Source: Octopus vulgaris (taxonomy: Eukaryota). Taken from it: DNA of 64,000 nucleotides. The stretch's first letter is position 1. Each line of letters starts with the position of its first letter. The translations under genes and the position numbers were made by a program. Below, piece after piece: positions 4,505-36,885 of the stretch. Under the pieces are notes generated by a model, which had not been told where the DNA came from, ran no database searches, and saw only the letters and a list, made by a program, of their open reading frames with translations. Location of the stretch: assembly GCA_951406725.2 (NCBI GenBank), contig OX597816.1, positions 90,582,001 through 90,646,000 of the forward strand, given 5' to 3'.

Positions 4505-5288
4505 CTGATTTAAAAATTTGACACAAGGCCAGCAATTTCGGGGAGTGAGTAAGTCGATTGCATCGACACCAGTATTCAACTGGCATTTATTCCGACTCCA
4601 GAAGGATGAACGGCAAAGTCGACCTCGGTGGAATTCAAACTCAGAACGTAAAGACGGACGAAATGCCGGCAGGCTAACGATTCTACCAGTTCGCTGCCTT
4701 ACATTCTTATTTAATATTGGTTTCAAATTTTGGCACAAGGCCAATAGTTATTTTGGGGGAGGGACCAAATCAATTAAATTGACCCCAGTACTCAACTGGT
4801 ACTTATTTTGTGAAAGGTAAAGTGAACTTCGGCGTAATTTGAACCCAGAACCTAAAGATGGACGAAATACCTGTTTCTTTACTACCCACAAGGGGCTAAA
4901 TACAGAGGGGACAAACAAGGACGGACAAGCGGATTAAGTCGATTACATCGACCCCAGTGCGTATCTGGTACTTATTTAATCGACCCCGAAAGGATGAAAG
5001 GCAAAGTCGACCTCGGCGGAATTTGAACTCAGAACGTAGCGGCAGACGAAATACCTATTTCTTTATTACCCACAGGGGGCTAAACACAGAGAGGACAAAC
5101 AAAGACAGACAAATATATTAAGTCGATTACATCGACCCCAGTGCGTAACTGGTACTTATTTAATCGACCCCAAAAGGATGAAAGGCAAAGTCGACCTCGG
5201 CGGAATTTGAACTCAGAACGTAGCGGCAGACGAAATACCGCTAAGCATTTCGCCCGGCGTGCTAACGTTTCTGCCAGCTCGCCGCCTT
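4505..5288 (-). mobile_element. Family A SINE array (single copy plus 184-bp-period trimer)
   Basis: gaaatac at 4864, 5048 and 5232; a single head ending at about 5288. Confidence 0.88.
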
Positions 5289-7435
5289 ATTAACTATTAA
5301 GGTAGTGGATGTGGCCTAGATAGTAGAGCAATGGAATCAATGTATCCGGGAATTTAGTCTCACTATCTTGCGTACTGAGTTTAATTTCTTGTAGGGTTGT
5401 TGACTTTCATCAAATTTAAACAAATCCAATCAATTATAACCCGTCTCTAAAAGCAAGTGTTATCGTGCCACTTTGTTAATTAATAATTAACTCTAAAAAG
5501 AACAACTGTGACTGCCTAGAGAGTAAACTGTCTGGAAAAAATGCATTAATACACAAATACATAATACCGACTCACCACCAGCGTGTGGCTAACAGTGAGT
5601 ACGCTTCTAAAAGCTGAAATGCATCTGGCGTTCCCGCTAGCTGCAGCTGGGATGAATTTTTGTCTTTCTCTGATATTCATTATGTTTTTAACATGGTACG
5701 TCCATAAGAGATGTTATCTCACGATAGATGCCGCAGTAACTGGTCTATCAACAATATGTATACATTAGGTGTGATACATAAATGGCTCTTGTTATTAAAT
5801 AATCTTTCAGCTGCGTATTGTTGTATTTCGGTATTTCGGGCTGGTCAATTATTCTTTTGGCAAAGTGCGTGTGTTTATTTAAAAAAAAAAAAAAAAAAAC
5901 AAAAAGAGCGTCCCGAAATACAAAAGTTGGCATAGTCGTTAGAAATTAGGATAAAATACCTTGTTGTATTTGTTACAGCTCTCAGAGTTCGAACCCGCTT
6001 AGGTCAACCTTACCTTTCGGTTAAAGGCCAGCAATTTTTGAAGGAGGAGTTGTTGACTAATTACATCGTTCCAGTACTTAATTGTATCTGGTTGAAAGAC
6101 AAAGTTGATTTTGTCAGGATTTCAGTTCAGAAGATAAATAACCGAAATCTAAAAATAATATGTCACTGTTTAACTATTTATAACTATTACATTATATTTA
6201 ACTATACGTAACAATTCAAATTCGCTCTCAAATGTTAAATATAAAAGTGGCAGACAATTATGATGACTCTCTTTGTAAACATTAAATTGTTTATTAATGA
6301 CTTTTTTCTTAAAAAACTTGATATAATTTAAAAGTTGCACCTTGCATAATCTAATCGTAGCTTAGTCTAATATTTGAGCTTTTATTTTACTAAAATGTTT
6401 GCGGGAATCCGAATTTTTTTCTTTTTTTGTATTGCACACAAATAGTTCTCAGCTTAAATTTCGAAAGCTAATTAAGATTAAGATCATGAAATTATTTGGT
6501 CCTGATTAATTTTCCTGTACCGTTTGATGGACACTAGTAGCAGAAGTAACGACAACGAAACTATTGAGTTAACGTGGGAACCTCTACAACAGCAGTTCCC
6601 ACCCAACCTTACGCCATCGTAACTTATTTTAGCAAAATCAATAATCTTTCACGGCTCTTTTTTTAAAAATATTTAAATAGTATGCAAACAACTTAAAAAA
6701 GAAACAACAACCATACATTAACCGTTGATATATTTCGATAAATATTCCTCAGTTTTTTTTTTTTTTTGTAAGTAATTAATATAGTATTGTAGTGCATATG
6801 TCTATCGCTTTTGGTAAAATACGTTCAGGAATGTTCTACATTTTACTAAATGTTTTACTAGTTTTTCAAAATTAGTAATTCAATGGCCGAAAACTACAGA
6901 TTTAGCGGTCACTCAATTTGCTAAAAGTAGCAGCTAAATTTCCCCTAGATCACATCTTATCGTTATACAGAGGAAGGTCACATTGGCTAATATAGTTCTA
7001 CAAGTACAAAAAGAAGACAAGGTAATTTCGAGGATGCTTTTACTCTATATATCTGCTCAGTCAGAGCTGACTTGGGTAAACAGCAACAACTAAACTGTTG
7101 TATGCTGTTGTGTTATATACGTACATTAGTTATTGCTTTCGATTTGACTAAGAATAATGAATTTCCTATATAACTGCCGAAAGGAAATAAATTCACCTTT
7201 TCTACTGTCAAAAACGTGCAATCTGAAATCTGGTCATTTTCCATTTACTACAAACAAAGTAGAATATTGTTGTTTCAAGCAACTCGCAAAAATAATCTTG
7301 ACAAAAGACGACAGAAAATTAAGAAGGTCCTCCTTACCATAAAAATTCAGTGACAGGCAAAACATTTATGAGGCATCATCAAAATACTGAAGAGAAAGAA
7401 ATCCTATGTAACCCCATATCATTATTACAAACCGG

Positions 7436-14200: not shown

Positions 14201-14228
14201 CTGATGAAGGACCACGTCCGAAACGTTT
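14201..14228 (+). ncRNA. Minimal hammerhead core, stem I lost
   Basis: CUGAUGA-A-GGAC cac GUCC-GAAACGUU. The flanks do not pair. Confidence 0.5.
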
Positions 14229-17785: not shown

Positions 17786-18216
17786 CACGTGTGTGTGTGT
17801 TTCAGATATACAGATAACAAAAGACAAAAACAGGTGAGGAAACAAGAAGCAGGTGCATTAGTTTGGCGCTTGGGAAGAATGGAAAAGTCATTGACGTTTC
17901 GAGCCTACGCTCTTCGATAGAAAGGGATGAGAAGAAAGAAATGGCGATAGTAAAAGACGGAGAGAAAAAAATAATGCAACGGGATTAACATATATATATA
18001 TATATGATATATCGTTAATCCCGTTGCATTATTTTTTCTCTCCGTCTTTTACTATCGCCATTTCTTTCTTCTCATCCCTTTCTATCGAAGAGCGTAGGCT
18101 CGAAACGTCAATGACTTTTCCATTCTCCCCGAGCGTCAAACTAATGCACCTGCTTCTTGTTTCCTCACCTGTTTTTGTCTTTTGTTATCTTTATATCTGA
18201 AACACACACACACGTG
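17786..18216. repeat. Near-perfect 430-bp palindrome made of two Penelope-like terminal sequences
   Basis: Arms 17786-17989 and 18014-18216 with a TA-rich loop. Each arm carries a degenerate hammerhead-like ctatcgaagagcgtaggctcgaaacgtc. Confidence 0.9.
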
Positions 18217-22865: not shown

Positions 22866-23448
22866 CGAGGGAAGTAAAAAATTACCCGCACTTTCGCCAT
22901 ATCATATCTTTATTATTGTCACATTGCCTTCTGCGCGTGCGTGCTTATAGTTAGTACTACTGTGGTCACGCGATTGAAGTTTGAGCCTGATCGCGCCATT
23001 TTTCTTTCTGGCTTTACAGTATAAGCATGGCCGCTCCACTCGCAATGTGCGACAAAGAAGAACAAAGAGCAGTGATCCGAGAGATGGTAATAGTGAACCG
23101 GTTCACCATTACCCTATCTCGAGCTTGCCGAATTTTTTCTTCAGTGGTGGAGATTGACGGGCGTCCTGTTCCCTCTTCATGCGTAACGCTTTTAAACTTC
23201 TCGATCCATTCATACACACCTCTACGCGGTAGTGCACTGTCCTCGTATTGTGTTAAAAGTCTCCGATGAATTTCAGCACCTGACACACCTTACGACCAGA
23301 GAAATCGGACCACTGTTCTTTGTTCTTCTTTGGTGAACATTGCTAGTGGAGCGGCCATGCTTATACTGTGAAGCCAGAAAGAAAAATGGCGTGATCAGGC
23401 AATCGGATATATTATGGCGAAAGTGCGGATAATTTTTGTCTCCCTCTC

Positions 23449-23449: not shown

Positions 23450-23516
<67 letters not shown>

Positions 23517-23730
23517 TCAATATAGGGTGGCAAAAAATTTCGTAGAATTTATTTGCCACCAGTGGCCTAGTGGGGAAAAATTAAATAGTCATAGACCATT
23601 TATAAGTTCAACATCACAATCAAGGAATGGCCATAATAGGCCATTCACCCACTAGAAATAACAGCCAAAGCTTCAACCGCAAAATAACATTAATTCCGCA
23701 AACCAGGAGAAAATTAAAAAAACATTTACC

Positions 23731-23845
23731 CTGTAATTTCTTATACGATGCACCGTTTCATCTATTGTTTAATGGTAAACTAACCTGATTAAATTAAATC
23801 AAGCCAATCTTCCATAGGCCGATAGATTCGTCAGTAAGAAAACAG
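23731..23845 (-). ncRNA. Type I hammerhead ribozyme on the minus (Wnt sense) strand
   Basis: Reverse complement of the same motif: tcgtcag at 23828-23834 is CUGACGA. Predicted cleavage between 23744 and 23743. Confidence 0.85.
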
Positions 23846-24199
23846 CCAGATCCGAGCAGATATTATCACGAGGCATCTCTATCCCTGCCTCGGCAATATC
23901 TGACCTAAAATTTTCAAATCATCGCACTCGCGCCAAATTTATCGGCAGCAAATATAAGCCGCCGATTCCATTACGGAATTAACCAGAAAATTCATAATTA
24001 ATCAATATAGGGTGGCAAAAAATTTCGTAGAATTTATTTGCCACCAGCGGCCTAGTGGGAAAAAATTAAATAGTCATAGACCATTTATAAGTTCAACATC
24101 ACAATCAAGGAATGGCCATAATAGGCCATTCACCCACTAGAAATAACAGCCAAAGCTTCAACCGCAAAATAACATTAATTCCGCAAACCAGGAGAAAAT

Positions 24200-24310
24200 T
24201 TTCTTACTGACGAATCTATCGGCCTATGGAAGATTGGCTTGATTTAATTTAATCAGGTTAGTTTACCATTAAACAATAGATGAAACGGTGCATCGTATAA
24301 GAAATTACAG
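24200..24310 (+). ncRNA. Type I hammerhead ribozyme (copy at the inversion junction)
   Basis: UUUCUUA-CUGACGA(24207-24213)-AUCUAU...AUAGAU-GAAA(24282-24285)-CGG UGCA UCG-UA^UAAGAAA. Stems I, II and III all pair. Predicted cleavage after A24297. Confidence 0.85.
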
Positions 24311-24678
24311 GGTAAATGTTTTTAATTTTCTCCTGGTTTGCAGAATTAATGTTATTTTGCGGTTGAAGCTTTGGCTGTTATTTCTAGTGGGTGAATGGCC
24401 TATTATGGCCATTCCTTGATTGTGATGTTGAACTTATAAATGGTCTATGACTATTTAATTTTTTCCCACTAGGCCGCTGGTGGCAAATAAATTCTACGAA
24501 ATTTTTTGCCACCCTATATTGATTAATTATGAATTTTCTGGTTAATTCCGTAATGGAATCGGCGGCTTATATTTGCTGCCGATAAATTTGGCGCGAGTGC
24601 GATGATTTGAAAATTTTAGGTCAGATATTGCCGAGGCAGGGATAGAGATGCCTCGTGATAATATCTGCTCGGATCTGG

Positions 24679-24793
24679 CTGTTTTCTTACTGACGAATCT
24701 ATCGGCCTATGGAAGATTGGCTTGATTTAATTTAATCAGGTTAGTTTACCATTAAACAATAGATGAAACGGTGCATCGTATAAGAAATTACAG
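24679..24793 (+). ncRNA. Type I hammerhead ribozyme (second + strand copy)
   Basis: CUGU-UUUCUUA CUGACGA(24690-24696)...GAAACGGUGCAUCGUA^UAAGAAA-UU-ACAG. Predicted cleavage after A24780. Confidence 0.88.
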
Positions 24794-24954
24794 GGTAAAT
24801 GTTTTTTTAATTTTCTCCTGGTTTGCGGAATTAATGTTATTTTGCGGTTGAAGCTTTGGCTGTTATTTCTAGTGGGTGAATGACCTATTATGGCCATTCC
24901 TTGATTGTGATATATATATATGTATATATATATACATACGTATATATATATACG

Positions 24955-25259: not shown

Positions 25260-25550
25260 TATTATCAACCCTATTATCTCCCCTTATTTCGCTCTCGCGT
25301 CTCATGTTTGATCTTTGACCTCTGGCCGAAATCAGATCGCCATGTTGATTCGTTAGCTACTGCACGCATTTTTTTTCTCTCCTTCTTTCTGTTTTTTTTT
25401 CTCTGTGTGTATCTTTCTGTTGAAGAGCGTAGGCTCGAAACGTTAAAGACTTGTTTTATTTATATTTCCTGAGCGCCATACTAATACAATTGTTCGTTTG
25501 TTTTCCACCTGCCTTCGTCTTTTGTCTATTTTCATAAAGCTTCCCGTTAT
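25260..25550 (+). mobile_element. Penelope-like terminal sequence with a minimal hammerhead variant (25412-25449)
   Basis: UCUUU-CUGUUGA-A-GAGC guag GCUC-GAAACGUU-AAAGA. Ends in (TA)n. Same family as 17786-18216 and 46425-46610 (-). Confidence 0.7.
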
Positions 25551-36848: not shown

Positions 36849-36885
36849 GTATATTTCGACTCCTTTTAGAGTCTTCGTCAGCAGC
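36849..36885 (-). ncRNA. Minimal hammerhead core on the Wnt sense strand
   Basis: CUGACGA-A-GACUC uaaaag GAGUC-GAAAUAUA with palindromic AUAU stem III. Stem I is only about 2 bp. Confidence 0.5.

Follow-up and report, generated by a model that had tools for sequence, protein, structure and literature searches.

What does a hammerhead ribozyme do with a second stem of 68 nt, and what kind of element carries it? Both questions are raised by a motif in a 64,000-nt stretch of the Octopus vulgaris genome, which we call the window and to whose positions all unlabelled coordinates refer. Here we examine the motif, its copies across the genome, and the pairings that its long arm could make. The reading we favour, with moderate confidence, is that of a type I retrozyme hammerhead whose stem II would dock on stem I through a kissing helix and so speed self-cleavage.

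A hammerhead with an extended stem II

Read from its letters (24683-24787 of the window), the motif is a type I hammerhead with a core, stems I to III and a GUA cleavage site, in agreement with the general pattern CUGANGA...GAAA...NUH. On the plus strand, the 5' strand of stem I (24683-24689) pairs with 24781-24787 over 7 bp (UUUCUUA/UAAGAAA) and leads into the catalytic core CUGACGA (24690-24696). The GAAA (24765-24768) opens a block of the same strand (24765-24780) that also holds stem III, its loop UGCA and the GUA triplet, with the cut predicted after 24780. An earlier note on this DNA had described a 68-nt stem II interrupted by a 6x6 internal loop, together with a palindromic loop on a stem III of 4 bp, and all letters lie where it placed them, both in stem II (24697-24764, plus strand) and in stem III (ACGG/UCGU, with UGCA at 24772-24775). 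Stem II is built from an outer stem IIa (AUCUAU/AUAGAU), the internal loop, and a stem IIb hairpin with AUGG/CCAU beyond the loop; the note's 2x2 mismatch 'aa/ua' needs amending, being one A-U pair and one A.A mismatch. The 5' strand of the internal loop is CGGCCU (24703-24708, plus strand), the helix-II side of the predicted kissing helix, and the 3' strand is UAAACA (24753-24758, plus strand), whose central two A's are conserved while the others vary.

The 146-nt region folds with z = -2.5 against chance, and the fold constrained to the hammerhead lies 2.1 kcal/mol above the minimum free-energy fold. Rfam gave no match to the window at gathering score and only repeat noise at E values up to 10—a miss that is likely due to the long stem II. 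A match to such a model does not define the chemistry.

Copies elsewhere in the genome were aligned to examine the stems. The loci examined held 261 motif matches (overlapping loci counted twice), from which 73 representatives were taken; nine of these, with junction or foreign DNA as their 5' flank, were removed and one was replaced by an intact sister, giving 64 aligned copies in 17 subfamilies with a mean identity of 62%. Three stems surround the core in this alignment, with stem I open. The paired share is 95.6% in stem I, 85.9% in IIa, 93.3% in IIb and 99.5% in III; most pairs have two-sided changes (four of the five tested in stem I), and stems I, IIb and III were recovered from the alignment unprompted. 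For the whole structure, scored with all three candidate extra pairings discussed below, 85.5% of cells are paired compared with 76.4% in shuffled alignments, and 222 cells are two-sided compared with 89; none of 500 shuffles scored as high. The earlier proposal of a structural variant is borne out in that the extended stem II is real and covaries across genomic copies. A distal extension of stem I, 76% paired but weak in the window's lineage, was not relied on.

The core letters doubled as search criteria, and their conservation comes partly from this selection; U4 is replaced by C in two of the 64 aligned copies. Position 10.1-11.1 is a weak spot, unpaired in 24 of 64, which should slow cleavage and counts against the reading we favour. 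Core variants also occur at the level of whole subfamilies: a U4 to C change that gives CCGAUGA, A.C or A.A at 10.1-11.1, and one additional base following A9 (loci L076, L102, L104, L041-L044, L054 and L052).

The palindromic loop III, which the earlier note had thought would permit dimers, holds up as a feature of the family. Among 100 matches listed from a search in which the loop was not a criterion, 91 have a palindrome when counted by eye (UGCA in 69, UAUA in 22), seven from one array have UACA, and two have other loops. Stem III is worth -0.2 kcal/mol as a monomer hairpin compared with -17.5 as a 12-bp dimer duplex, and dimeric cleavage is therefore plausible; palindromic stems III are already known in repeat-type hammerheads (PMC3088659). 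A 7-unit array with the non-palindromic UACA (L105, G000:C1:28.88 Mb) may be an intermediate between UGCA and UAUA.

The repeat unit and its spread through the genome

The window contains three hammerheads, two on the plus and one on the minus strand, all within a retrozyme insertion of ~1.4 kb (23509-24911) that is made of an inverted and a direct arm and abuts (TA)n at both outer ends. The inverted arm (23509-24200, minus strand, ~1.4 units) has one hammerhead, with its core starting at 23834, a predicted cut after 23744 and a GGCUG kissing strand at 23843-23847 (minus strand); its 3' end falls at unit position 233. The direct arm (24199-24911, plus strand, ~1.5 units) has two hammerheads and a 3' end at unit position 129. 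Between their predicted cleavage sites lies a 483-nt monomer (24298-24780, plus strand), a predicted circular RNA whose circular fold has z = -8.5 against 20 shuffles; across four subfamilies z runs from -4.9 to -8.5, and the minus strand is negative too. The first plus-strand hammerhead (24199-24323) has the inversion junction as its 5' flank and so lacks the GGCUG kissing strand—a natural knot-less control.

The ~485-nt tandem repeat is almost certainly a non-LTR retrozyme. Its short tandem units carry one type I hammerhead each, the GC content of the region is 0.35-0.38, below 50%, and no stop-to-stop ORF of 90 aa lies within 23509-24911. Its dispersal is that of a retrotransposed element, with many chromosomes, varying 5' truncation, fixed 3' ends and inversions; target-site duplications are unreadable because the insertion ends lie in (TA)n. 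The unit contains no ORF with RT and GIY-YIG, and so falls outside the autonomous Penelope-like elements (PLEs). Contigs of four sequencing runs, whose origin from RNA is uncertain, cover most of the unit.

Pattern and similarity searches over the 2.8-Gb genome point to a large family. Matches to the unit number 198 as listed, many in tandem arrays, and the full-length ones among them are 93-100% identical. A search with the 3' half of the motif gave 4,490 matches in the genome against one in the control, and the pattern core-N40-70-GAAAC-NN-UGCA-NN-GUA has 1,107 against two for the reversed control; a second long-stem-II pattern, whose set overlaps the 1,107, has 740 against one. A pattern with a short stem II and UGCA gave 42 matches, and from these numbers we take the long stem II to be the family norm, with a length of about 36-72 nt. 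About 25 of the 42 short-stem matches come from an older, different hammerhead-like family with a stem III of ACAC-UGCA-GUGU (L143-L150), and two loci, L068 and L069, were rejected as false pattern matches. Arrays reach 17 units; in the rolling-circle test, units differed by no substitutions in one 7-unit array and by 1-8 in others.

Insertion anatomy was scored in 17 distinct insertions from the 30 best loci (L001-L030), with the composite locus L019 excluded. Eleven of the 17 are inverted. All 28 of the 3' ends touch TA-rich DNA, and 26 fall into two clusters away from the cleavage site, near unit position 129-134 or 226-237; nine of the 11 inverted insertions have one end of each cluster, which gives a tail of ~100 nt. 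Copies of differing subfamilies inside one locus (L158, L177) suggest that they inserted into one another or side by side.

Fixed ends and (TA)n targeting provide anatomical support for mobilisation by Penelope-like elements. Insertions of PLEs as described by Craig et al. (bioRxiv 10.1101/2021.04.23.441226) and by Cervera and de la Pena 2014 (PMC4209133) share with ours the partial tandems, the inverted 5'-truncated copy, the tail at one end, the (TA)n bias and the palindromic loop III; in contrast, our unit has no ORF, its tail is ~100 nt rather than 30-40 bp, and its stem III of 3-4 bp is not minimal. No sequence link to a pLTR was found in a comparison with two nearby PLE 3' regions (best BLAST E 0.13), and in 40 flanked loci no RT/GIY-YIG ORF is joined to the unit; PLE-like ORFs near two of the 40 were rejected as partners, being separate insertions. 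The lack of an autonomous partner in these comparisons counts against the reading we favour.

Two loci contain fragments of other elements. L070 has a separate PLE fragment with a GIY-YIG ORF (6321-6863, minus strand; Pfam E 1e-4); after it, at L070:5045-5125 (minus strand), comes a hammerhead-like motif whose stem II is ~60 nt long and whose loop GAUC is palindromic. At L056:300-3500 an RT/endonuclease fragment, presumably PLE-like by its motifs, has the same inverted-arm anatomy with an end at (TA)n; its ORF had no match in Pfam.

A predicted helix between stem II and the stem I flank

In the mechanism we propose, stem IIb would cap loop 2 into an internal loop and present RCC to the flank of stem I, leaving the length of the cap free. 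A predicted kissing helix of 3-6 bp would replace the usual loop 1-loop 2 contact and accelerate self-cleavage. Tandem transcripts would be cut at GUA/GUC into ~485-nt monomers, aided by neighbouring hammerheads that pair up by joining their palindromic stems III; the monomers would be ligated into circles, and a Penelope-like RT/GIY-YIG enzyme would copy the circles into (TA)n.

The helix-I-side strand of this contact would be GGCUG (24677-24681, plus strand), just 5' of stem I, which is predicted to pair with CGGCC at 24703-24707. On the stem I side the helix would lie about 5-9 nt away from the core, and on the other side 2-7 nt deep in stem II. In the window's subfamily GGCUG/CGGCC makes five pairs with -6.1 kcal/mol, and the last G-C has changed on both sides relative to the nearest subfamily. 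Both the GGY that precedes stem I and the internal-loop RCC are conserved across the 64-copy alignment: two of the pairs are retained as G-C in 59/63 and 60/63 copies, and the third has gone from C-G to U-A in five copies of one lineage, with one copy having a perfect 6-bp UAGGUC/GACCUA. Alignment A2 was kept out of these counts; the upstream strand shifts by one column between subfamilies.

After the pairing had been proposed, a contig was found in which the upstream G is A and the loop C is U. A pattern for this A-U double change has 229 matches against eight in the control, and 94 of the 100 listed belong to the retrozyme family, in long arrays on many chromosomes; the subfamily has about 215 copies. 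At the same pair, G-C or G-U occurs in 2,281 copies (the first 100 listed are all G-C), compared with a one-sided A.C mismatch in 3 + 1 copies, one of them a junction artefact, and G.A or G.G in ten. The downstream GGGU is unchanged in the A-U subfamily, which argues for the upstream GGY as the partner of RCC. The A-U subfamily, which also carries a second change in stem I, differs from its sisters by 24-30 substitutions in ~490 nt; by our own arithmetic, a chance double change on both sides of one of so few pairs would be expected in roughly under 1% of cases. The two-sided changes in the core of the helix are counted as two events, one per lineage, and not as 215.

Several results count against the kissing helix. 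Its outer flanking pair is unpaired in 19/58 copies, RCC could pair instead with the invariant GGU 3' of stem I, and stem I can be extended by CUGU in the four-U variant of the window, in competition with the helix. No two-sided change at the middle G-C pair occurs among 100 matches listed of 557, which are mostly an unrelated coding-like repeat. A subfamily permutation test, made when the A-U subfamily had yet to be found, did not reach significance (p = 0.18 by length, 0.22 by energy); this would be expected if both strands are nearly constant, yet it is a result against. For the distal partner the permutation test gave p 0.012 (length) and 0.094 (energy). On balance, the conservation and the paired changes suggest that the helix very probably forms between GGCUG and CGGCC.

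If it forms, the helix probably speeds cleavage and does not block it. Activation is favoured because pseudoknots increase rates by orders of magnitude in tested hammerheads (PMC3088659) and because a rate of 0.96 per min is given for a termite delta-like hammerhead with GCCR/YGGC, the kissing pair of delta-like type III hammerheads that are active (PMC7936874). A preprint on frog retrozymes, in which only one of nine predicted retrozymes cleaved in vitro (bioRxiv 10.64898/2026.07.22.740005), counts against.

The same helix could instead be a brake, so that the hammerhead of a lone monomer or circle would be inactive and cleavage would take place only in the tandem double-hammerhead fold. The covariation of the helix is equally compatible with brake and accelerator, a monomer has only a marginal stem III, and the palindrome is retained. 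Metazoan retrozyme circles are stable though their hammerhead is predicted to be free, a block left unexplained (PMC7229834); and in the sCYDV-RPV hammerhead, with its long helix II and internal loops, a peripheral contact lowers the rate (PMC1636495, PMC3152364). We nevertheless consider a brake less likely, as the helix sits where activating contacts lie, most of the tested pseudoknots activate, and the termite hammerhead cleaves with the same motif. Just as tentative is an extension to a safety catch, in which a helix-swapped GCCR/YGGC module and the palindromic stem III would together let tandems be cut and keep the monomer circle locked. If true, this would explain how the circles of animal retrozymes escape cutting, and compensatory variants that occur in nature allow it to be tested.

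More doubtful than a brake is the model of the earlier note, in which AAACA/UGUUU is the active contact and CGGCCUA/UAGGCCG an alternative, inactive fold. Both complementarities are present in the window—AAACA with UGUUU (24800-24804; 24317-24321 in the first plus copy) and CGGCCUA with UAGGCCG (24470-24476)—but as conserved pairings neither is supported. A duplex of AAACA with UGUUU yields only -1.0 kcal/mol, and the 483-nt unit contains UGUUU twice. The duplex is 61% paired in the register proposed and 82% paired when slid by 2-3 columns; its central C-G is unpaired in 55/64 copies, and its covariation is within that of shuffles. Amplified subfamilies carry AAUCA, AAAAA, AAUGA or AAACG with no matching change opposite. 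In favour of the model, conservation extends to two A's of the loop and to the U-run, and some A-rich/U-run register with at least four pairs exists in 62/64 copies; with the register left free, permutation gives p 0.047 (length) and 0.029 (energy), and at about 0.03-0.05 a loose pairing in other registers may add a weak contact. UGUUU lies within a conserved AGGGUAAAUG plus U-run 3' of stem I (24792-24808, plus strand). The form GGGUAAAnG plus U5-7 is kept in all subfamilies ~12-28 nt past the cleavage site, although it was a selection criterion in some pattern searches; we speculate that it may serve as a Pol III terminator-like run or bind a protein.

The second pairing was tested on 37 longer copies, namely the window's minus copy and 36 of 50 representatives. 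It is 66% paired, with the central C-G broken in 23/36. Two measures were beaten by only 2-3 of 500 shuffles, a control that ignores kinship, and in the window's lineage the 7-bp duplex reaches -11.2 kcal/mol. The UAG is paired elsewhere: CUAGUGGG (24384-24391, plus strand) is the 5' strand of a covarying helix with 24465-24472, and in CCCACUAG-GCCG (24465-24476, plus strand), which contains UAGGCCG, the UAG pairs with 24384-24386. This helix is 94% paired with three two-sided pairs, and the UAG pairing has a p of 0.87-0.96 in the circle. What survives of the claim is CGGCCU as a probable strand of a tertiary contact; the named partner UAGGCCG does not, and GGCUG 5' of stem I is the better candidate. 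A lineage-specific misfold through CGGCCUA/UAGGCCG is possible, as is a hammerhead that could switch between active and inactive folds.

Least probable of all is that GGY and RCC are kept for some other reason (recognition by a mobilising RT or by some host factor of protein nature, or an RCC that pairs with the downstream GGU) and that the long arm is non-catalytic: many unpaired stretches of the monomer are conserved too, the permutation test is non-significant and independent events are few, but the A-U subfamily changed the upstream G and the loop C and left the downstream GGGU as it was, and one-sided mismatches are rare and scattered.

Relation to known ribozymes and retrozymes

Precedents exist for each ingredient of the accelerating architecture we favour: the retrozyme, the palindromic stem III, the long helix II, the Watson-Crick contact between helices I and II, and the GCCR/YGGC letters. 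What appears to be new is their combination in a type I hammerhead with the helices swapped, which is absent from the literature found. Our search returned no report of this retrozyme family or of a type I hammerhead with this contact; subscription literature and the supplement of PMC7229834 may hold similar motifs.

The metazoan non-LTR retrozymes of Cervera and de la Pena 2020 (PMC7229834) are likewise tandem non-coding units with one type I hammerhead each and GC below 50%. With those of the Li, Clavereau and Pollet preprint (bioRxiv 10.64898/2026.07.22.740005), they resemble ours further in having no LTR and apparently no PBS or PPT, a stable predicted circle and co-occurring PLEs, from which the preprint derives non-LTR retrozymes. 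Mussel retrozyme hammerheads, like ours, do without the usual loop 1-loop 2 bases. The unit is ~485 nt here, compared with 170-400 in PMC7229834 and 51-972 in the preprint. Unlike these retrozymes as described, ours has a stem II of 36-72 nt with an internal loop and cap, a predicted kissing contact by Watson-Crick pairs, 5' inversions, a tail of ~100 nt and insertion into (TA)n; neither source is known to describe a long stem II.

Closest in the letters of the contact are the toad and termite delta-like RNAs and the dipteran type III hammerheads (de la Pena et al. 2021, PMC7936874), which also have a short stem, an internal loop with 5' GCCR, a capping hairpin, and pairing with YGGC on the other helix. 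In these, helix I carries the capped internal loop and helix II has YGGC in its terminal loop; our motif swaps the two helices, is of type I topology and has a palindromic loop III. Identity with the atypical delta-like type III hammerheads is ruled out by the type I topology and by the strands lying on opposite helices; the likeness is one of working only, and we assume convergence.

The sCYDV-RPV (+) satellite hammerhead resembles ours in its long helix II with internal loops, its peripheral contact between helices I and II, and its double-hammerhead cleavage (PMC1636495, PMC3152364). It differs in belonging to a plant satellite RNA, with a closed loop 1, a 6-bp helix III and a contact reported to be inhibitory; ours is a genomic animal retroelement with an open helix I, whose contact may speed or slow cleavage. 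The pseudoknotted hammerheads of types I-III (Perreault et al. 2011, PMC3088659) replace the non-canonical contact between stems I and II by Watson-Crick pairing, and their repeat types have a palindromic stem III, as here. As far as described, they have a short stem II, often of 2 bp, and knot through a terminal loop or tail, in contrast to the internal loop in a long stem II proposed here.

The family adds an architecture missed by Rfam—a type I hammerhead whose stem II has a capped internal loop and a predicted Watson-Crick kiss to the flank of stem I, in thousands of copies—in which the GCCR/YGGC contact would be used with the helices swapped. Its dozens of subfamilies provide natural compensatory mutants, making accelerator and brake cheap to tell apart; a brake, if true, would bear on why animal retrozyme circles stay uncut.

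Other features of the window lie outside the insertion. Short CUGANGA-hairpin-GAAA or GAAGAG-hairpin-GAAAC motifs resembling minimal PLE hammerheads occur at 14201-14223 (plus strand), 36854-36881 (minus strand), and 18078-18117 and 25413-25452 (plus strand), with a pattern count at chance level. At 22985-23400, inverted arms of 96 nt flank a short reading frame, which we take to resemble a fragment of a mariner-type transposase. A 184-nt tandem of a SINE-like repeat, presumably one from octopus genomes, occupies 4811-5239.
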